A DNA stretch of 64,000 bases from a virus: positions 1 to 64,000 of the IMG/VR virus record IMGVR_UViG_3300017917_004390; one strand, written 5' to 3'. This document shows, piece after piece, positions 9,592 through 18,527 of this stretch. Both the position numbers and the translations under genes were made by a program. Numbering within the stretch: position 1 is the first letter of the stretch; the number at the start of each line of letters is the position of its first letter. The notes under the pieces were generated by a model. That model saw nothing but the letters and a program-made list of their open reading frames with translations. It ran no database searches and had not been told where the DNA came from.

Positions 9592-12159
9592 TTACTTAAA
9601 TGTTAATTTAGTATTATTATCTAAATCTTTTTCGGCTACTAAAAGAAAATCGGGTTCAATTAATTCACTATGAGCGTGTTCAATAATAATTACTTTATCA
9701 ATATACCGTCTAAGTTGTCTCATTAAACCAACAAATAAACCAGCATTTTTTTCTGAAAGTTTACCAAATAATTCATCTAATAACAATATGTTTGGTTTAG
9801 AATTACGATTTAACATTCTAAGTGCTAATCTAAGTGCTATACTACTAAACACTCTTTCCATACCTGAGCCTGATTTAACATCCATTAAAATATCTGGTGC
9901 ATATTTTTTAATCATCTTAAATTCTAAATCATCATTAAGATATACATCAAAATCAACGTCAATTAAATATTCACTTAAAACATTATTAATAGTAAAAAGT
10001 CGCTGTTTAAGTATTAAACTTGGAAGTCCTTCTCTATGTAGGATTTTTTCATAAAAATCACGTATTAATTCCTCATTTTGTTGTTTTTCAAACTTTTCAA
10101 TAGTTTCATTTTTTTGTTTAATACTTTGTTGTTCATTGACAATGTAAGTATTTTTTAATGATAATCTGCGCTCATTTTTACTATTTTTTTGTGTTAACAA
10201 CTCATTGATTCTGGCATCAATTTTTTGTAATTTAATATCTATTTTATCATTTTCTTCTTTATTTTGAAGATTTCTTTCATAATCAGTAATCCTTTTGTTT
10301 TCTAAATCTATTCTTAATTCAATATTTTCAATATCAGTTGGTTTATTTTCTAAATCTTTAATAAGAAGATTTTTCTCATTAATTTTTTCTTTTATATTAT
10401 CAAATTCATGAAGTTTATGATTGATAGTCTCAAAATCAAGTTGTTTTTTAATTATTTCAGCTTCAATAATAGAGATTTTCTCTTTGTTTTTTTCAATTTC
10501 ACTATTATATTCAGTAATTTTAGTTTGATATTGAGTAATTTGGTTATTTATCTTATCTAATTTATCTTTATAATTAAAATTAAATTTTAAACTACTGATT
10601 TCATGTTCTAATCCATTAATATTTAATCTAATATTACGAATTGTTTTTTCAATTTCTGAAATAGCATCTTTATTTTTAAGTTGTTTACAAGTTGGACATA
10701 CTTTACTATTTTCAAACTGAGCAATTTCTTTTTCTTTTATTTCAATTTGACTTTGAATGCGTTTTATTTCGGCTTCAAGCTCATTATCAAGAAATTTAAT
10801 ATTTCTTTCTTCTAATGAAATTAAACCATTAGTTTTAGAGATATCATTGAGTAATTGTTCATTTTCTAATTGTATTTTTTTGATTTCATGTTTTTTATTT
10901 GACATCAAATCTTTAAAAGTGTTAAATTCATTTAAAACTAAATCATATGATTCTTTATTAAATACATACTTTTCTAACCCCGCAATTTTTTCTTTTAGAG
11001 TTTCAATTTCATGTTCTTTATTTTTCTTTTTTTCTATTAAATTTAATATATTCGTTTTAATATCATTAACATTAGTATTTAAAAGAACTAAATCTACATC
11101 TTTTTTAGTGGATAATACTTCATCTCTATAAGAATTACCCTTGCTTAACGAATCATCTAAATTTTTAATCTCAGACTCTATTGTTTGAATTTCTTTTTCA
11201 TATTCAATAATATTTAATTTATGTGTTTCAATTTGATTTTGATAATCAAGTACATCAATTTTTAATTGGGTTTCCTTCTTATATTCATCTTTTTTCCACT
11301 TTTTAAATCTTTCTAATTTCTTCTCAAACATATCTAAACCAGAATCTTTTAATATAGCAGTTAAAAATTCAGCCCTATCCATAGATAATATATCGTTAAG
11401 ATTATCAGCATTAATTAATGATAATCTAAGAAAATCTTTAAATTCACCTACAATATTCTTAAGATATTCTTGTGTTTTATTTTTATCTTGGTCAGTTTCT
11501 TGATTGAGGATATTACCTAGTTCATCAACTAAATCATATTTAACTGTGGTTGAACATGATGTGATGGATGTTTTTTTTCTATCCCATTTTCTTTCAGTCC
11601 TTCTGGTAATACAATATTGTTTACCTTCAACTGAAATAAAAATCTTAACTTGGCAATAATCTAAATTCCTATTAAAATTGATGAATTTATTATCTCTATT
11701 GGATTCTCTATCAATAGTATCTAATGTTCTACCTTGTAGTCCATAAGTTATAGAATTTAAAATATTTGAGTTATGTGAAATAATTTCATCATTAACAAAA
11801 AATTCTGGATTACCTTCTACTTGAATATCATATAAATCAATTTTTTCGTTATTAACATATACAGTTTTAGGTGTTTTAAGACCATTCCTAGTTAAAACTG
11901 GTGTATTGTTCTTTAGTACATTCAACGCACTAGTATATACCTTGGTACCATCGCCACTATCAGTTTTAAAATAATGATTTTCACTTGAAGTGACTGAGTT
12001 ATCATCAAATTCAATTGTTATGGTTTCACTATCTTTAGCTGTTATATCAACTGATTTAATTTTTTGATAACCATTAGGAGTTTCAATTTCAATATCTAAG
12101 TCAGGATTATTTTTAAAAAGTTCATATAAACTTTTAAGGTCAATATTTTGTTCTGTCAT
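9592..12159 (-). CDS. sbcC: Split-intein C-fragment (aa 1-130) fused to the C-terminal part of an SbcC/Rad50 (gp46-like) ATPase
   Basis: aa 1-130 carry intein blocks B (SSENHYF), F (DLYDIQVEG) and G (ISHN|S); then coiled coil, CPTC zinc hook, SGSGME signature, LLLDE Walker B and IIEH; no complete Walker A in this ORF. Confidence 0.92.
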   Translation of the reverse strand: MTEQNIDLKSLYELFKNNPDLDIEIETPNGYQKIKSVDITAKDSETITIEFDDNSVTSSENHYFKTDSGDGTKVYTSALNVLKNNTPVLTRNGLKTPKTVYVNNEKIDLYDIQVEGNPEFFVNDEIISHNSNILNSITYGLQGRTLDTIDRESNRDNKFINFNRNLDYCQVKIFISVEGKQYCITRRTERKWDRKKTSITSCSTTVKYDLVDELGNILNQETDQDKNKTQEYLKNIVGEFKDFLRLSLINADNLNDILSMDRAEFLTAILKDSGLDMFEKKLERFKKWKKDEYKKETQLKIDVLDYQNQIETHKLNIIEYEKEIQTIESEIKNLDDSLSKGNSYRDEVLSTKKDVDLVLLNTNVNDIKTNILNLIEKKKNKEHEIETLKEKIAGLEKYVFNKESYDLVLNEFNTFKDLMSNKKHEIKKIQLENEQLLNDISKTNGLISLEERNIKFLDNELEAEIKRIQSQIEIKEKEIAQFENSKVCPTCKQLKNKDAISEIEKTIRNIRLNINGLEHEISSLKFNFNYKDKLDKINNQITQYQTKITEYNSEIEKNKEKISIIEAEIIKKQLDFETINHKLHEFDNIKEKINEKNLLIKDLENKPTDIENIELRIDLENKRITDYERNLQNKEENDKIDIKLQKIDARINELLTQKNSKNERRLSLKNTYIVNEQQSIKQKNETIEKFEKQQNEELIRDFYEKILHREGLPSLILKQRLFTINNVLSEYLIDVDFDVYLNDDLEFKMIKKYAPDILMDVKSGSGMERVFSSIALRLALRMLNRNSKPNILLLDELFGKLSEKNAGLFVGLMRQLRRYIDKVIIIEHAHSELIEPDFLLVAEKDLDNNTKLTFK
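11770..12159 (-). other. Intein C-fragment (IntC, 130 aa, no homing endonuclease)
   Basis: Ends in His-Asn followed by Ser+1 (11767-11769); lacks block A. Confidence 0.92.
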
Positions 12160-13247
12160 TAGTAATTATATGTTAATTTTTTAATTAATTCAATAGCTTC
12201 GGTGTATGATTTTAAAATAACCCTGTTATTTTTATTCAATTTAATGATATTATTAATACCAAGAAATTTAATGAAATCTTTAATATCAATTTGTTTAATA
12301 TTTTTATCATTTAATTTAGCATAATCAAGTATTTTAGTTTCTGGTAATAAAACATCATTTTCTTTTAATAAACCATTTTGATAAATTACTTTTAATAGAT
12401 TTAAATAACGATTATATTTATTATATGAATCTGAATTATATATCTCGTTAAAAGCTTTAAAGTCAAAAGAAACTACATTATATATACCCACCATAATCAT
12501 TGTTTCAATAAACAATGTTATAAACAATAATATAAAAATATTGGAGTTTTTCTTTTCGGAAATTTTTGATAACTGAGTTAAATATTCTGTTTTAAGTGTA
12601 TTTTTTTTATCAGTATGTTCGCTATTTAATTTACTTAAACTTTGTTTGGTTAAGTCAATATCTTTATTAAGTTGATTTATAAGTTGGGTTTCTTTTTTAG
12701 TTAATACTCTAATAGTATCTGATGAATATAAATACCCATTTTGTTTTTTAATTAAGATATTTAATTGTTTAGTAAGCGTATCTACATTAGATTTATGTGT
12801 TGAATCTAACAAATATTGATTTTTTTCATAGGTGCTAACTAAATTATTTTTATTTACATCAGTATTTTCTGTAATTTCAGTTATAGATTTAATGGCTATA
12901 AATCCTGAACCTACTACTAAAAATAAAACTAAAATGATATTTAAAATATTAAATGGTTTCTTTTTGAGAATATCAAAGAAAAGATTTATAGATACCATCC
13001 TCTTGATTACTTCCCAAAATGAAAGTATTAAAATACTAATGAAACCAAAAAAAACAGATTTCAAAGGAAAATTCTGTTCAATAAAAGAATTTAATAGATA
13101 ATATACACCGAAGAATGATATTAAAATATTAATTACTTGAAAACTTATAGACTGGCTATTCCAAATAAGTCTAGTATTTTTATTACTTCTAGTGTAAGAT
13201 TTTTCTAAAATCTTGTCTTCTAAATTTTTAATTTTTTCAATTTTCAT
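12159..13247 (-). CDS. Membrane protein with coiled-coil domain
   Basis: 362 aa; three N-terminal hydrophobic segments, a coiled coil and a fourth TM segment. Confidence 0.6.
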   Translation of the reverse strand: MKIEKIKNLEDKILEKSYTRSNKNTRLIWNSQSISFQVINILISFFGVYYLLNSFIEQNFPLKSVFFGFISILILSFWEVIKRMVSINLFFDILKKKPFNILNIILVLFLVVGSGFIAIKSITEITENTDVNKNNLVSTYEKNQYLLDSTHKSNVDTLTKQLNILIKKQNGYLYSSDTIRVLTKKETQLINQLNKDIDLTKQSLSKLNSEHTDKKNTLKTEYLTQLSKISEKKNSNIFILLFITLFIETMIMVGIYNVVSFDFKAFNEIYNSDSYNKYNRYLNLLKVIYQNGLLKENDVLLPETKILDYAKLNDKNIKQIDIKDFIKFLGINNIIKLNKNNRVILKSYTEAIELIKKLTYNY

Positions 13248-13785
13248 TTGTAAAAAGTTCTGAAATAAAATTAGGTTTGTATTTATCTTCTTCTAATATA
13301 ATAGTTTTTTCACATAAATCATTGGGAAATAACTGGTTTGATGTTAATATCACATCGAACATATCTTTTAACTCGGAGTAATTTTTAATAAAGACAACCC
13401 CATCCATTATTAACCTATTATCAGTTAAATAATTGAGAGTGAACATTCTAGCAGTTTCACCTTCTTTTGAGAAAAAGTATAACTTATAATCTGATAAAAT
13501 TTCTCTAATCTGTAGATGATTTATAGCTATATTTTGTTTACGCTTTGGATTTGCGTACATAACTGATACATAATCAATAATAAAATCATTAAAAGTATAC
13601 TTTGGTTTACTATCTGAATCAATTATTAGAAATTCAGAAATGTTGAAATGCGTTACATTATTGATATTATCAAGTAGATATTGCTTAGATTCACTTTTAA
13701 TTCTTGTTTCTTTTTTATATGATTCTATAACATTAGTTTTAAAATCTCTGATTAATCCATTTATTTCTATACCAATTTTTTTCAT
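13237..13785 (-). CDS. HAD-fold 5'(3')-nucleotidase-like protein, catalytic motif degenerate
   Basis: N-terminus KKIGIEINGLIRDF resembles the HAD motif I (IGIDIDGVL.D) with DxD changed to ExN. Confidence 0.4.
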   Translation of the reverse strand: MKKIGIEINGLIRDFKTNVIESYKKETRIKSESKQYLLDNINNVTHFNISEFLIIDSDSKPKYTFNDFIIDYVSVMYANPKRKQNIAINHLQIREILSDYKLYFFSKEGETARMFTLNYLTDNRLIMDGVVFIKNYSELKDMFDVILTSNQLFPNDLCEKTIILEEDKYKPNFISELFTNEN

Positions 13786-13832
13786 CTTTTTTAGCTAATA
13801 TAACTAAAAAACGTATTTTATTAAAAAAACTT

Positions 13833-14909
13833 ATGGAAAAAAAAGAGTTATTAAAAAGTATAGTAGATAAGATTAATGACAAAAAATTTAAAATCTATAT
13901 CTACGCACCAAACTTGACTGAGGCAAGTAATATCTATTCAATGGGTGTTGTTCAATTATATACTCATTGTAAACTTTTACGTGATTCAGGTTATGATGCT
14001 TATATCTTAAAAGAGGAAGAACAAAATAAAAGGTATGTAACACCTGAATATTTAGATGAAGAATTAAAATCATTACCATCAATATCAGCCATTGAAACTC
14101 CAATTAATATTGGGCCGGAGGACTTTTTAATTGTCCCTGAATATTTTACTAACGTAATGAATGAAATTTATAATTCAAATATTCCATGTGAAAAAATAGT
14201 ATTTTGTCAGTCTGAATACTATATGCTTGATTCATTAATGATTAGCGGTTCTTGGTCTCAATTTGGGTTTAAAAATGTAATAACAACAAGTCCTGAACTA
14301 GCAAAACATATCAATAGTTTATTCTATAATTTATATGATATTAAAAATTATACAATTGGTATACCAGATTATTTTCAAAGTAATGAAGATAAGAGGTTAG
14401 TTATAGGATTTTACAGTCGTTTTGAAAAGGATATCACTAGATTTATTAAAACATTCTACCTAAAACACCCTCATTTACGTTTTATTGGTTTTGAACCTAT
14501 TAATGGTTCTGGTATGGCTGTTGAACGTGAAGTTTTTGCTAAAAAACTAAGTAAATTACCAGCCATTGTTTGGTTAGATTCTGAAACGGGTTTTGGTACT
14601 ATCCCTCTTGAAGCTTTTAAATCTGGTTCAATTTTAGTTGGTTTCCAACCAAAAATCACAAAAGAATATGTTAAAGACGGTTCAGCTGTTTGGTCTAATG
14701 ACATAAACGATTTAGCGGAACAATTGGGTCAAGTACTAAACGCTTGGTTAGAAAATAGTCCTGAATTAGTTAGTGTTTATGAAAAAATGAAAGAAATTTC
14801 AAATTCATTTACTATTGAAAGGCAAAATCAAGAATTAAAATCATCTTATGAATATTTTTTCAATAAAAGAAAAGAAGCAATTAACAATTTAATTAACACA
14901 GAAGAATAA
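13833..14909 (+). CDS. GT-B fold glycosyltransferase (GT4-like)
   Basis: 'DFLIVPE', 'ETGFGTIPLEAFKSG' donor-binding motif; paralog of 25542-26501. Confidence 0.75.
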   Translation: MEKKELLKSIVDKINDKKFKIYIYAPNLTEASNIYSMGVVQLYTHCKLLRDSGYDAYILKEEEQNKRYVTPEYLDEELKSLPSISAIETPINIGPEDFLIVPEYFTNVMNEIYNSNIPCEKIVFCQSEYYMLDSLMISGSWSQFGFKNVITTSPELAKHINSLFYNLYDIKNYTIGIPDYFQSNEDKRLVIGFYSRFEKDITRFIKTFYLKHPHLRFIGFEPINGSGMAVEREVFAKKLSKLPAIVWLDSETGFGTIPLEAFKSGSILVGFQPKITKEYVKDGSAVWSNDINDLAEQLGQVLNAWLENSPELVSVYEKMKEISNSFTIERQNQELKSSYEYFFNKRKEAINNLINTEE

Positions 14910-14911
14910 TT

Positions 14912-15757
14912 ATGGAATTAACAGTTATATTACCAATAAACGGCTTAAAAAGTCAAGAAGAAAAAACATTATTTAGTAACGCAATAGTATCTGTTTTTAA
15001 TAGCAGTACTAAACCAAAAGAATTAATGGTTGTTATTGATGAATGTCGAGAAGATTTATCTGACATTATGTTGGAAACTACTAAATTAGTTGATGCATCT
15101 GAATATAAAGGTATTAAAATTAATTTATTAGATTTTAAAGGCGAAAATCATAACATTCAAGCTTCAATTAATTTTGGTGTGAAAAATTGTACAACAGAAT
15201 ATTTCACTATTTTAGGTTTTGATGATTCATTAACTAATTATTGGTTAAGTGAAGTGGAGAAAATTAAAGAAATTAAAGATGAACAAACCGTATTTCTGCC
15301 ATTAGTAGGTGATATGGTTGATGGAAATAATTTTTTACGCTTTGTTAATGAAACTGCATGGTCTTTAGGTTTTGAATCACATGAAGATGGTTTTGTTAAC
15401 TTTGCTTTACTTAACAACCCACAAATATTACCTGAAATGTTTACTATCTATGGTATAGTAATGCGAAAAGAAGATTTTATCAATCATGGAGGTCTTAAAG
15501 AATCTATGAAATACGCTTATTTTTATGAATTTTTACTTAGAATTACAAATAAAGATTTAAAACCATATTTAATACCGAAAATTGGTTATCTACATCTATG
15601 TAATAGAGAAAATTCAATATCTCACATGATTAGTAAAATGAGTGAAGATGAATTAAGGTGGTGGATAAATACTTCCAAAAAAGAATGTTATCATACAAAA
15701 GATAGGAACAAACAATATGTACCTTCAGTAACTACTACTGAGCAACCTATACTATAA
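14912..15757 (+). CDS. GT2-like (GT-A) glycosyltransferase
   Basis: 'LTVILP', 'INFGVKNCTTEYFTILGFDD', 'YEFLLR' pattern. Confidence 0.7.
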   Translation: MELTVILPINGLKSQEEKTLFSNAIVSVFNSSTKPKELMVVIDECREDLSDIMLETTKLVDASEYKGIKINLLDFKGENHNIQASINFGVKNCTTEYFTILGFDDSLTNYWLSEVEKIKEIKDEQTVFLPLVGDMVDGNNFLRFVNETAWSLGFESHEDGFVNFALLNNPQILPEMFTIYGIVMRKEDFINHGGLKESMKYAYFYEFLLRITNKDLKPYLIPKIGYLHLCNRENSISHMISKMSEDELRWWINTSKKECYHTKDRNKQYVPSVTTTEQPIL

Positions 15758-15779
15758 TTTTATTTAATAATTAGTATGA

Positions 15780-16580
15780 ATGGTCGTTGTAGAAAAAAAG
15801 AAAAGAGGTAGAAAACCTAAAAACAATGATAAGAGGTATTTTGATGAAGAAGTGGAAAAGGCTATTATTTTATATAATAGCCAATACACTTCGGACGAAG
15901 AAAGGACTAGATTATATGAAAAAATTATACACGGTCCTTTAAAAAAAATAGCGTCCATACAAGCAAGAACTTTTCATTATTATTTCACTGAAAGAGTGAC
16001 TATTGATGATATGATTGATGATGCTGTAATACATTTATATAACAATCTAGCATATTTTAAACCTGATGCTGTTAATAAAAATGGAGACCCTGTAAAAGCA
16101 TTTTCATATTTTTCGACTATATGTAAAAACCACTTAAAAAAACTAAGTGAAGAATCATATAATCATGATAAAAATAACGATTCTGTTGATATCTATTATA
16201 GTATGTTTGACCAAGATGTTAAACACAGTTATGAATTAGATATTGATAATGGTATTTCAAAAAATGATATGTTTTTTAGTAAGATAGCAAAAAATATGAT
16301 TGAAAAAATAAATCAACAATTGAATACTGGTAAATCTGTTAAAGAAAATGATTATAAAGTTGGTAGAGCTTTAATCACTATATTTGAAAATATTGGGGTT
16401 TTATATGAGCCGTCCGAAGAAGATTTCAGCAATCATTATATGAGAAAGAAAATAATTGAAATTATAAAAGAAATTACAGGTATTAAAACCAATAAAGAAG
16501 TTAATAACTCTTTAAAAACTTTCAAATCGTTATACTTCATTAGTAAAAATGAAAATAGTGATATTCTGGATAATGATTAA
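15780..16580 (+). CDS. Phage sigma factor, T4 gp55-like (late transcription)
   Basis: Basic N-terminus with 'RYF', 'DDMIDDAVIHL..F.P' and 'KAFSYFSTICKNHL', matching the gp55/sigma region 2 pattern. Confidence 0.7.
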   Translation: MVVVEKKKRGRKPKNNDKRYFDEEVEKAIILYNSQYTSDEERTRLYEKIIHGPLKKIASIQARTFHYYFTERVTIDDMIDDAVIHLYNNLAYFKPDAVNKNGDPVKAFSYFSTICKNHLKKLSEESYNHDKNNDSVDIYYSMFDQDVKHSYELDIDNGISKNDMFFSKIAKNMIEKINQQLNTGKSVKENDYKVGRALITIFENIGVLYEPSEEDFSNHYMRKKIIEIIKEITGIKTNKEVNNSLKTFKSLYFISKNENSDILDND

Positions 16581-16651
16581 CAATTGCAATCTTTATCAAC
16601 CTTTTTAGGATTTATCCTAACAAATAAACTAAAAATATAAACTAAGAATAT

Positions 16652-16677
16652 AAGCACCTGTATTAAGGTGCTTTTTT
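16652..16677 (+). terminator. Rho-independent terminator after the sigma gene
   Basis: AAGCACCT-gtatta-AGGTGCTT hairpin followed by a T run. Confidence 0.75.
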
Positions 16678-16745
16678 CATTGAAAAAATAACTATATATT
16701 ATATAGAGTAGATAAAATAATAAAGTTCTTTTAAGTAAAAATAAC

Positions 16746-17039
16746 ATGATAGATATAACAGATTATATAAATGATAATAATTTTAATTTGATACCTTTTA
16801 TCAAAATACCTATCAGTAATAGTGATTTATATGTAGAATATACACAATTTGATAGGCTTGATAAAATTTCTAATGATAATTATTCTACACCATTATATAG
16901 TAAATTAATATTGATGGCCAATCCAAGTTTTAAAAAAGAGTCAGATATAACACCCGGTAGTGTAATAAGAGTTCCTTTCCCTCTTGATAGTGCTAGACAA
17001 AGAGTTATTAACAGTATAGAATTATTAAAAAAATTCTAA
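16746..17039 (+). CDS. LysM/gp53/tail-X-like baseplate protein
   Basis: 'DRLDKIS...Y..P.Y..LILMANP......I.PG..IRVP' motif. Confidence 0.75.
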   Translation: MIDITDYINDNNFNLIPFIKIPISNSDLYVEYTQFDRLDKISNDNYSTPLYSKLILMANPSFKKESDITPGSVIRVPFPLDSARQRVINSIELLKKF

Positions 17040-17215
17040 CCATTAATTATCAATGTATAATTTTTTATCAATACATCAATAATTTTAGAATATATCTTGG
17101 AAGTATTAAAATTATAATAAGCATTTCTACTCATAACCAAATTTTTAATTTTCCTTTTTGGTAAAAATATATTAATATTTTTTAATTGTAAATCTCTATC
17201 TGATAATATCAACAT
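17036..17215 (-). CDS. Small hypothetical protein
   Basis: ATG 4 nt after the upstream stop; fills the gap to the convergent gene. Confidence 0.35.
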   Translation of the reverse strand: MLILSDRDLQLKNINIFLPKRKIKNLVMSRNAYYNFNTSKIYSKIIDVLIKNYTLIING

Positions 17216-17219
17216 ATTT

Positions 17220-18527
17220 TTATCTTTCAGATAAACCATATCTAATTTTTACTCTTGTTGAAGGGTGTAAACATTTACCTGCTTGATTTTCGCCTGATAT
17301 CTGTATAATACCATTTTTATCTGATAAATCTAACTCAAATTCTTCTCCATTTGATTTAAAATTATCAATAACTAATTTATCAATACTATAACTAACATCA
17401 CCTACATTAGTTGTTTCCATTTCAGTTAATTCAGTAATTTTCTTATCTAATAAAAGTATGTCGTTAATTAATTTTTCAGGACATTTATTATCTTGAAGGA
17501 ATTTAATCATTAATTTTTCAACCTCAACAGTATCTTGTAAATCTATTAAAGATGCTTCATCTTCAATTTTACTGTTTTTACTTAATAATTTAGTTTCATC
17601 AAATTTAACATCAGTAATATTAAAAGTATCTTTAAAATATTTAATAATTTTCTTTTTATTTTCAACGGTAGCATTAACTTTATAATCCAACCATCTAATC
17701 ATTATATAATTGTAAACACCTAATTCATCAAAACTAATAGTTATATCATCATAATCAAAATCAGGTTCAATTTTTACGTTAAAATACTTATAATCACTTT
17801 TAATTTCAATCGGTTCTAAATCCATAAGACTTAAATCCCATATTACATACCCATGAAATGAATTATTACCTTCGGAATATTTGGTGCAGTATAATGATGA
17901 TGGATAACAAAAGAAAGGCTTTTTATTCTTATATTCTACTTGAAATAAATGTATATCGCCAGCCATTACTATATCACCTTTGAAATCACTTAATGATACA
18001 GCATCACCATTCTCATAGATACTTCCTGTTTCAAGACTGCAACCTTGTATTGGGTCATGAAATATGTCAATATATGTTTTATTAGGGTCTCTTTCTTGTG
18101 TGAAATCTAACCAAGGACTTTTTCTGTCTGGATGATACCAACAAGCAAATACTAAATTGCCCATTTCATACATCTTAGTTTGATTGAGATAATGAATTTT
18201 AGGATTCTTCATTATATCAACTAAGTTTTTAATTGATGAATGTCTTTGAAGGTTTAACTTCATCAAATCGTGATTACCATCGGTAATAACAACTTCAGCT
18301 ATTTCAGTTAATTTATATAAAAAATCAGCAGCTAAGGCTCTAACTTCATTAAATGGTCTTACATAATCATGGAACAAATCACCTGATATAACTATTAAAT
18401 CAGGTGATTGTTCTTTAATTGATTCTACCGTTTTGTCAGCTACGTGTTTTTGTTCTGTTAAACGACTTAAATTGTTCATAAAATGAACATCAGCCATATG
18501 AGCTATTCTAGTATATTTTTTTTCCAT
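17220..18527 (-). CDS. sbcD: SbcD/Mre11 (gp47-like) nuclease fused to the SbcC N-terminus (to the Walker A Lys) and a 17-aa intein N-fragment
   Basis: ADVH, SGDLFH, GNHD, FH and GDIH phosphoesterase motifs; then 'IDKLVIDNFKS...IIQISGENQAGK' followed by 'CLHPSTRVKIRYGLSER*'. Confidence 0.92.
   Translation of the reverse strand: MEKKYTRIAHMADVHFMNNLSRLTEQKHVADKTVESIKEQSPDLIVISGDLFHDYVRPFNEVRALAADFLYKLTEIAEVVITDGNHDLMKLNLQRHSSIKNLVDIMKNPKIHYLNQTKMYEMGNLVFACWYHPDRKSPWLDFTQERDPNKTYIDIFHDPIQGCSLETGSIYENGDAVSLSDFKGDIVMAGDIHLFQVEYKNKKPFFCYPSSLYCTKYSEGNNSFHGYVIWDLSLMDLEPIEIKSDYKYFNVKIEPDFDYDDITISFDELGVYNYIMIRWLDYKVNATVENKKKIIKYFKDTFNITDVKFDETKLLSKNSKIEDEASLIDLQDTVEVEKLMIKFLQDNKCPEKLINDILLLDKKITELTEMETTNVGDVSYSIDKLVIDNFKSNGEEFELDLSDKNGIIQISGENQAGKCLHPSTRVKIRYGLSER
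17223..17273 (-). other. Intein N-fragment (IntN, 17 aa)
   Basis: Block A 'CLHPSTRV' directly after Walker A GK, then a stop codon. Confidence 0.9.

Follow-up and report, generated by a model that had tools for sequence, protein, structure and literature searches.

The window analyzed here comprises the first 64 kb of the 93,192-bp IMG/VR viral record IMGVR_UViG_3300017917_004390, whose completeness is estimated by CheckV at approximately 30%. Two genes on the minus strand of this window encode the two halves of an SbcCD (Mre11-Rad50) protein. One half ends, and the other begins, with a fragment of an intein, and the two products are probably joined by protein trans-splicing within the Walker A motif (P-loop) of Rad50. 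A preliminary description of this DNA had proposed such a system, with an N-terminal intein fragment (IntN) of 17 amino acids (aa) and a C-terminal fragment (IntC) of 130 aa, and both of the open reading frames (ORFs) that it named are found in the ORF listing at 17220-18527 and 9592-12159, on the minus strand and with the ends that it gave. The source virus is a large, uncultured, low-GC tailed phage. The G+C content of the window is approximately 25%, further genes in it encode a DnaB-like helicase, exonucleases, and baseplate wedge proteins, and among database phages the closest is the uncultured megaphage LR756501.1 (735 kb). The features of the two gene halves are as follows:

17274..18527, minus strand: N-extein, 418 aa, an SbcD/Mre11 metallophosphoesterase continuing into the N-terminal strands of Rad50 and the beginning of its Walker A
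17274-17294, minus strand: GENQAGK, first part of Walker A and end of the N-extein
17223..17273, minus strand: IntN, 17 aa (CLHPSTRVKIRY followed by GLSER), with its Cys directly after the P-loop Lys; stop codon at 17220-17222
11770..12159, minus strand: IntC, 130 aa, no Cys, with block B (S59-x-x-H62), block F (D108-L-x-D111-IQVEG), and block G (H129-N130)
11767-11769, minus strand: Ser+1 codon, first residue of the C-extein
9592..11769, minus strand: C-extein, 725 aa plus stop, with Ser+1, the remainder of the Rad50/SbcC ATPase head, the coiled coil, the CPxC zinc hook, the signature motif, Walker B, and the H-loop

An SbcCD gene in two halves

The N-half (435 aa) ends in IIQISGENQAGK, followed by the IntN (CLHPSTRVKIRYGLSER) and the stop codon. 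It matches Pfam Metallophos (E 3e-12) and TIGR00619 (sbcd), as a calcineurin-type nuclease, and the nuclease motifs are invariant across the alignment of N-halves (A2). Its C-terminal part matches positions 1-32 of AAA_23, that is, the Rad50 N-terminal strands and the early Walker A. A homologue search with N-half residues 376-435 only returned a sole match, the window's own protein. The C-half (855 aa) opens with 130 residues ending in NDEIISHN, after which the C-extein begins with SNILNSITYGLQGRT (SNILNSITYGL). It matches the SbcC-like family phrog_77 (E 1e-23), AAA_23, and SbcC_Walker_B, and C488/C491, LLLDE, and EH are invariant in the alignment of C-halves (A1). The start codon of the C-half at 12159 overlaps the stop codon of the upstream gene (TAATG), and the MTE start is kept in relatives. 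Both halves match phrog_35725 at opposite ends, the N-half over positions 5-481 of 1376.

Fusion proteins of Mre11 and Rad50 (SbcD and SbcC) have been described as a family (Yoshida, Claverie & Ogata 2011, PMC3175470). The domains of such a fusion are divided between the two genes, with Metallophos and the Rad50 N-terminus in the N-half and AAA_23, CPxC, and SbcC_Walker_B in the C-half. Uninterrupted homologues include a 1202-aa protein of LR756501.1 and proteins of the Tenacibaculum phages pT24 and PTm1, and the spliced product predicted here would likewise be a single chain. Unlike in the known fusions, however, the fusion in this case would come about only via protein splicing, and a single Mre11-Rad50 chain exists only after splicing.

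The exact position of the junction is given by the homologue in LR756501.1, where one unbroken ORF (L001:3989-7597) reads GENQQGK|TTIIDAI. The N-half aligns with residues 5-413 of this protein, up to its IGGENQQGK413, and the C-extein aligns from T414 (TTIIDAICFILYGTT) to its end. Because the homologue aligns across K413|T414 in this way, the 17 and 130 additional residues together interrupt exactly one peptide bond in the P-loop. Removal of the intein would restore a colinear, conserved host motif, GENQAGK-S, and the alignment thereby bears out the rebuilt Walker A of the preliminary description. Unless splicing takes place, the ATPase cannot be active, because the P-loop Lys is on one polypeptide and the Ser and helix that follow it are on the other.

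The intein fragments and their family

The IntC is recognized as an intein by several searches. It scores 20.5 bits on the NCBIfam model TIGR01443 (intein_Cterm; cutoff 15.6). The gathering score of the full-length Pfam family Intein_splicing (PF14890) is not reached, since the match covers the C-terminal 32 positions only, at 15 bits versus 35.8; such a sub-threshold match is expected for an IntC fragment without block A. A phmmer search against the PDB returned the gp41-1 intein (E 6e-4), the Aes123 PolB1 split intein (PDB 9hth), which differs from PolB16, and VidaL (E 0.11, in an alignment whose VidaL side starts from residue 23 of the crystallized fusion), with a weak match to CatC. Block B reads S59-E-N-H62, with Ser replacing the Thr of TxxH, and blocks F and G read DLYDIQVEG and ISHN|S. 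Across 49 diverse IntC representatives, the structural and catalytic intein positions G30, H62, D111, H129, and N130 are invariant.

The IntC and ten extein residues were modeled with AlphaFold2 from a 7-sequence alignment, with a predicted local distance difference test score (pLDDT) of 75. The best Foldseek match of the model is VidaL (6vgv; E 1e-5, TM 0.64), and the top 50 Foldseek and VIA matches are inteins, bacterial intein-like (BIL) domains, or hedgehog Hint domains. In the VIA alignment, model residues 1-133 superpose on VidaL chain residues 20-144 (Z 11.6, root mean square deviation 3.0 Å, 124 residues), while other inteins match the model only from their residue 11-14 onward. Consequently, the IntC is a HINT domain complete except for its first beta-hairpin, a piece the size of the IntN, the fold expected if the atypical split first proposed is correct. 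The first helix of the model spans residues 8-17, and the VidaL alignment begins at chain residues 20-24. The break is thus predicted to lie after beta2 and before helix alpha1, at the “S1” position, as in VidaL.

The IntN begins GK|CLHPSTRV, and its Cys1 codon occupies 17273-17271. Cys1 is invariant in nine N-half clusters, and the C, H, P, T, and I of the IntN are invariant among relatives. A position-specific scoring matrix (PSSM) was built from 12 other family members and scored on 21,802 12-mers from the long ORFs of the window; IntN residues 1-12 gave the best score, 22.7 bits, and the next best was 8.4. The fragment lengths and the intein blocks of the preliminary description are confirmed, as are Cys1, Ser+1, and the absence of Cys from the IntC.

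The intein of the window belongs to a large, apparently undescribed family that occupies this SbcC/Rad50 site in phages known only from uncultured material. When the IntC region was used as the query of a word-indexed search, 33 additional clusters (90% identity) were retrieved; their proteins, of 841-856 aa, share the IntC and SbcC architecture at 40-44% identity. An exhaustive phmmer search with the 130-aa IntC over 1.84 billion representatives yielded 60 clusters at E<=1e-3, four of which were rejected as spurious repeat proteins. In at least 43 clusters (50% identity), an IntC of 120-127 aa starts within the first 25 residues and is followed by Ser or Thr and a Rad50-type helix (xILDAxxFxLFGK). 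The +1 residue is Ser or Thr in the SbcC-type members, and 22 of 49 family members match Pfam Intein_splicing at E<1e-3. One member, P0038, matches VidaL over the whole IntC (E 1.3e-3).

Contiguous forms exist as well, in the shape of five mini-inteins of 152-160 aa at GK|C. The contiguous intein is found in a stand-alone SbcC in P0067 and P0088 and in a fused SbcD-SbcC in P0074 and P0089. All four are at the same site and align across the split point. The fifth, P0047, is a 367-aa sequence with approximately 195 residues ahead of its intein. A few clusters have Cys+1 and T4-type large terminase exteins, three of them matching Terminase_6N (P0048, P0090, and P0092), and these relatives of the IntC tie the SbcC family to the known atypically split TerL inteins. 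A 520-aa SbcD-like metallophosphoesterase homologue, P0108, also matches Pfam Intein_splicing, which indicates that inteins occur in the nuclease part of the SbcD-SbcC family too.

The conservation within this family has implications for an alternative reading, namely that the intein fragments serve only as a non-covalent dimerization module and that the two polypeptides act as a complex without a peptide bond. A precedent exists in a fragmented phage NrdA that is documented to assemble without splicing (PMC3045599). However, Cys1, the block B His, the block F Asp, the terminal His-Asn, and Ser/Thr+1 are conserved over dozens of clusters, which is unexpected for a docking module, and a 147-residue domain left in the P-loop would part the Lys from the following Ser and helix. 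Non-covalent assembly is therefore a very improbable explanation of the locus.

Separation of the halves and truncation of the IntN

The two halves lie on the same strand and are separated by 5,060 nt, in agreement with the approximately 5 kb first described. Seven ORFs are found between them:

12159-13247, minus strand: 362-aa membrane protein
13237-13785, minus strand: 182-aa protein
13833-14909, plus strand: GT1-like glycosyltransferase
14912-15757, plus strand: GT2 glycosyltransferase
15780-16580, plus strand: 266-aa protein, basic
16746-17039, plus strand: 97-aa wedge-like protein
17036-17239, minus strand: ORF67

The 362-aa protein is a predicted membrane/coiled-coil protein whose gene is translationally coupled to the C-half through the TAATG overlap; it has no homologue at related loci and no family match. 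A homing endonuclease between the halves was considered and rejected, as no such family is detected in the seven intervening ORFs (Pfam E<=0.1, PHROG E<=0.01). The neighborhood, with glycosyltransferase genes between the SbcCD halves, presumably resembles the 46-47 / a-gt / 55 region of T4.

Related loci were retrieved by an alignment-based scan of IMG/VR, a single 200-aa query having retrieved none. The scan yielded seven loci (L005-L011) from seven different metagenomes with the same split. In all seven, the two halves share a strand and the C-half follows 4.0-5.8 kb downstream of the N-half, and the genes for the 97-aa wedge-like protein, the 266-aa protein, GT2, GT1, and the 182-aa protein are common to the spacers at 25-45% protein identity. 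The wedge-like, 266-aa, and both glycosyltransferase genes are on the strand opposite to the halves. Identity to the relatives is 40-46% for the IntC, approximately 40% for the whole C-half (IntC and C-extein), and approximately 54% for the whole N-half (N-extein and IntN). Intein and exteins are thus similarly diverged, which fits vertical co-inheritance. By the recurrence of the same arrangement, the split together with the intervening block predates the divergence of these phages.

The window sequence is a single metagenomic contig, and either the 5-kb separation or the junction that yields the short IntN could in principle have been made by misassembly. The same split and the same gene order between the halves nevertheless recur in seven independent contigs from different samples. 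The short-IntN junction leaves intact both the frame of the N-half and the start of the overlapping ORF67, which has a homologue in L009. Misassembly is rejected on these grounds as the origin of the separation, and an artefact of either kind is the least credible account of the locus.

The IntN of the window is shorter than that of its relatives, and the DNA around its end contains what is most simply read as a deletion:

17237..17239, minus strand: deletion junction, inside or after IntN codon 12; the left side matches the IntN DNA of relatives and the right side matches the beginning of a small gene further downstream

In the relatives the IntN is 29 aa long (for example, CVHPETKINIRY followed by NEEEIIAKLGYLPEFLK). 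Codons 1-12 of the window IntN are identical to the L009 IntN at 25 of 36 nt, and the next 30 nt at 13 of 30. From ATGGTTTA onward (17239, overlapping codon 12 as TAT|GG), the window instead matches the start of ORF64 of L009 at 39 of 60 nt, versus 3 of 30 in the 30 nt leftward, and in L009 that small gene sits approximately 2 kb further downstream. ORF67 (17036-17239, minus strand) is the counterpart of this gene (L009:6200-6394; BLASTP E 2e-6). It encodes 67 aa, starts within IntN codon 12, overlaps the N-half stop by 20 nt, has no family match, and marks the right side of the junction.

The simplest reading is that a deletion took out the final 17 codons of a 29-aa IntN along with the neighboring gene or genes, so that Tyr12 now runs into five out-of-frame codons (GLSER and stop) at the 5′ end of ORF67. 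The present IntN would then consist of 12 ancestral and 5 adventitious residues. No remnants of the lost tail were found downstream of the stop in three frames or elsewhere in the 93-kb record. Relatives carry a gene for an 80-86-aa protein between the IntN and the junction point, and some have, in addition, genes for an AAA+ ATPase and an FkbM-like protein. The ATPase gene, which is BCS1-like (GPPGTGKS), directly follows the N-half in L005 (5071-6171) and L009 (4249-5956), and the FkbM-like gene of L009 encodes a 202-aa methyltransferase. Since the window and L006 are without the AAA+ and FkbM-like genes that relatives carry, the spot beside the IntN seems to be a hotspot for insertions and deletions. 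The short IntN appears to be a lineage-specific event that took place later than the split and the spacing.

This history raises the possibility that the intein is genuine but that the deletion, from 29 to 12 homologous IntN residues, crippled splicing, leaving an SbcCD gene whose inactivation is too recent for decay to show. Several observations weigh in this direction and against a functional intein. The other eight N-half clusters, 32-54% identical to that of the window, all keep the 29-aa IntN with its conserved tail, ...LG[YF][LI]Px[EF]L[KL], and the 17-aa form is found in the window only. Of the five contiguous forms, P0047, P0074, and P0089 also have a GFLPxELK-like segment, the deletion junction is clear, and a second copy of the N-half was not found in the 93-kb record. 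In a profile hidden Markov model of the five contiguous family inteins, run on IntN and IntC together, the IntN adds only 2.8 bits, as the local alignment stops at the 12-residue deletion, and 23 of 200 shuffles reached such a gain. Loss of the tail could weaken fragment affinity or splicing. The lineage of the window is known from one genome only, and the contig covers only the approximately 30% of that genome estimated by CheckV.

Against a crippled intein, both halves are intact over 435 and 855 codons with all nuclease, ATPase, and zinc-hook motifs, whereas random frames close within approximately 12 codons at approximately 25% GC and neutral decay would bring in stops quickly. Long-standing loss of splicing is consequently unlikely in such AT-rich DNA on a long branch. 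The deletion would have to be very recent on this branch, which is 40-55% identical to its nearest relatives. Furthermore, the segment lost in the window corresponds to the most variable stretch of the contiguous family inteins (13-26 residues), with P0067 and P0088 divergent there, and VidaL, which splices with 16 aa, does not have it. A working clipped IntN is favored because the lost segment is variable, family-specific, and absent in VidaL, and because natural IntNs of 15 aa (PolB16) and 16 aa (VidaL) and an engineered 11-aa IntN (M86) splice (PMC13014065). Function is also favored by the reliance of this phage on a second, canonical split intein in its ribonucleotide reductase (RNR) gene. 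Inactivation of the intein by the deletion is therefore unlikely. Functional trans-splicing by a naturally and atypically split class-1 mini-intein is the probable reading of the locus, and the fold, the profile matches, the junction, and the synteny support the atypical split put forward in the preliminary description.

Proposed trans-splicing and relation to known systems

Trans-splicing at this locus would begin when the 17-residue tail of the 435-aa protein, the IntN, docks into the 130-residue IntC at the start of the 855-aa protein and supplies its absent N-terminal beta-hairpin. Cys1 would form a thioester with Lys418, attack by Ser+1 would convert it by transesterification to a branched ester, and cyclization of Asn130 would free the intein. 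An O-N shift would then yield a 1143-aa single-chain Mre11-Rad50 protein with the P-loop GENQAGK-S and the junction NQAGK-SNILNSITYGLQGR.

The orientation of the intervening genes, with glycosyltransferase and regulator-like genes running opposite to the halves throughout the clade, suggests that the halves may lie in separate transcription units. Scans for expression signals gave 87 sigma-70 promoter sites versus 89 expected and 41 late boxes (TATAAATA) versus 39 expected. It is conceivable, if doubtful, that trans-splicing acts as a timing or dosage switch, with Mre11-Rad50 active only when both units are expressed, and that the 12 ancestral IntN residues suffice, which would make them the shortest natural homologous IntN core known.

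Atypically split inteins have IntNs of 15-37 aa and comprise an S1 type (VidaL, PolB16) and an S2 type (AceL-TerL and GOS-TerL) (PMC13014065, PMC10189870). The intein of the window has the S1 arrangement, with block A only in the IntN and blocks B, F, and G in the IntC. VidaL (16-aa IntN; PDB 6vgv/6vgw; Burton et al. 2020, as cited in PMC13014065) shares with it the S1 split position after beta2, the dependence on Cys1, Ser+1, and the block G context (GIVSH-x-S), and its structure is the one that the IntC model matches best. VidaL differs in its host gene and in its measured activity, and the two are only 21-23% identical; the IntN of the window, moreover, has been clipped from 29 aa, and its halves are 5 kb apart. 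The PolB16 OarG intein (15-aa IntN, cysteine-less; PMC10189870) is likewise a natural split of the S1 type, in which the IntN is very short and the IntC long. Its chemistry is Ser1/Ser+1, its IntC has 168 aa, and its host is PolB, whereas the intein of the window depends on Cys1. The preliminary description had placed the 17-aa IntN at the short end of the known range. The IntN is indeed short; however, it is not a record, as PolB16 and VidaL are shorter (PMC13014065), nor is it the norm of its own family, and a claim to the shortest IntN was accordingly rejected.

The AceL-TerL and GOS-TerL inteins and the consensus “Cat” (Thiel 2014; Bachmann & Mootz 2015; Dassa 2009 “Terminase”, PMC2677866) also combine a short IntN with an IntC of approximately 122 aa that contains all motifs except N1; the terminase split with its 122-aa IntC had already been noted by Dassa et al. 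2009 (PMC2677866). The split in these inteins comes after helix alpha1 (S2, 25-37-aa IntN; PMC13014065), and they have Cys+1 and a terminase host, in contrast to the split before alpha1, Ser+1, and SbcCD host of the window. Halves from distant loci are also joined by trans-splicing in the case of the cyanobacterial split DnaE (Wu et al. 1998, cited in PMC13014065), and wide spacing as such is thus not new. Split DnaE differs in its canonical split (IntN of approximately 100-123 aa, IntC of approximately 36 aa) and its cellular host. In Synechocystis the DnaE halves are hundreds of kb apart.

P-loops are classic intein sites (PMC4760082). In the literature searched, in which subscription papers were partly covered, no paper was found on an intein, split or not, in SbcC, Rad50, gp46, or Mre11; SbcC/Rad50 inteins are absent from Dassa 2009 (PMC2677866, which also has none in gp46), Novikova 2016, and Pinto 2020. 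The preliminary description, too, was aware of none described in SbcC. The case is not a one-off, however, as the at least 43 metagenomic clusters that begin with such an IntC demonstrate. The mechanism is of a known kind, and the new details are the host protein (a fused Mre11-Rad50), the conserved multi-gene spacer without a homing endonuclease, and the naturally truncated IntN. In this case, for which the literature searched gave no earlier intein in SbcC/Rad50, a DNA-end-processing activity of a phage would hinge on a post-translational ligation inside the P-loop.

Split inteins with a short IntN are sought for protein semisynthesis and labeling, as the N-fragment can be made as a peptide, and the characterized natural examples are a handful (AceL-TerL, GOS-TerL, VidaL, and PolB16). 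The locus offers a VidaL-like Cys1/Ser+1 candidate with a cysteine-free IntC. In addition, the natural truncation series, in which a 29-aa IntN and one of 12+5 aa accompany homologous IntCs, is a direct test of which IntN residues are needed. The at least 43 clusters and the contiguous versions form a large pool of orthologous pairs for engineering.

A further comparison is with the fractured genes of Dassa et al. 2009 (PMC2677866), in which a phage DNA-metabolism gene is likewise present as two ORFs, each with an intein half. Fractured genes in that sense have a free-standing homing endonuclease gene, whereas the SbcCD spacer consists of 4-6 kb of conserved, unrelated genes, partly on the other strand. 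A fractured gene of a phage can thus persist with kilobases of unrelated, conserved genes between its halves. The fractured RNR gene of the same contig, beyond the end of the window (L003:1-2610, equivalent to G000:C1:69522-72131), is a textbook example of the described kind. Its N-part ends SSNL|CLSEDTVLDV..., with an IntN of approximately 105 aa, and is followed by a free-standing 344-aa ORF with a PD-(D/E)xK-like C-terminus. The RNR IntC is 34 aa long, ends DILVHN|CIEIVQYS, and scores 45.9 bits on TIGR01443.

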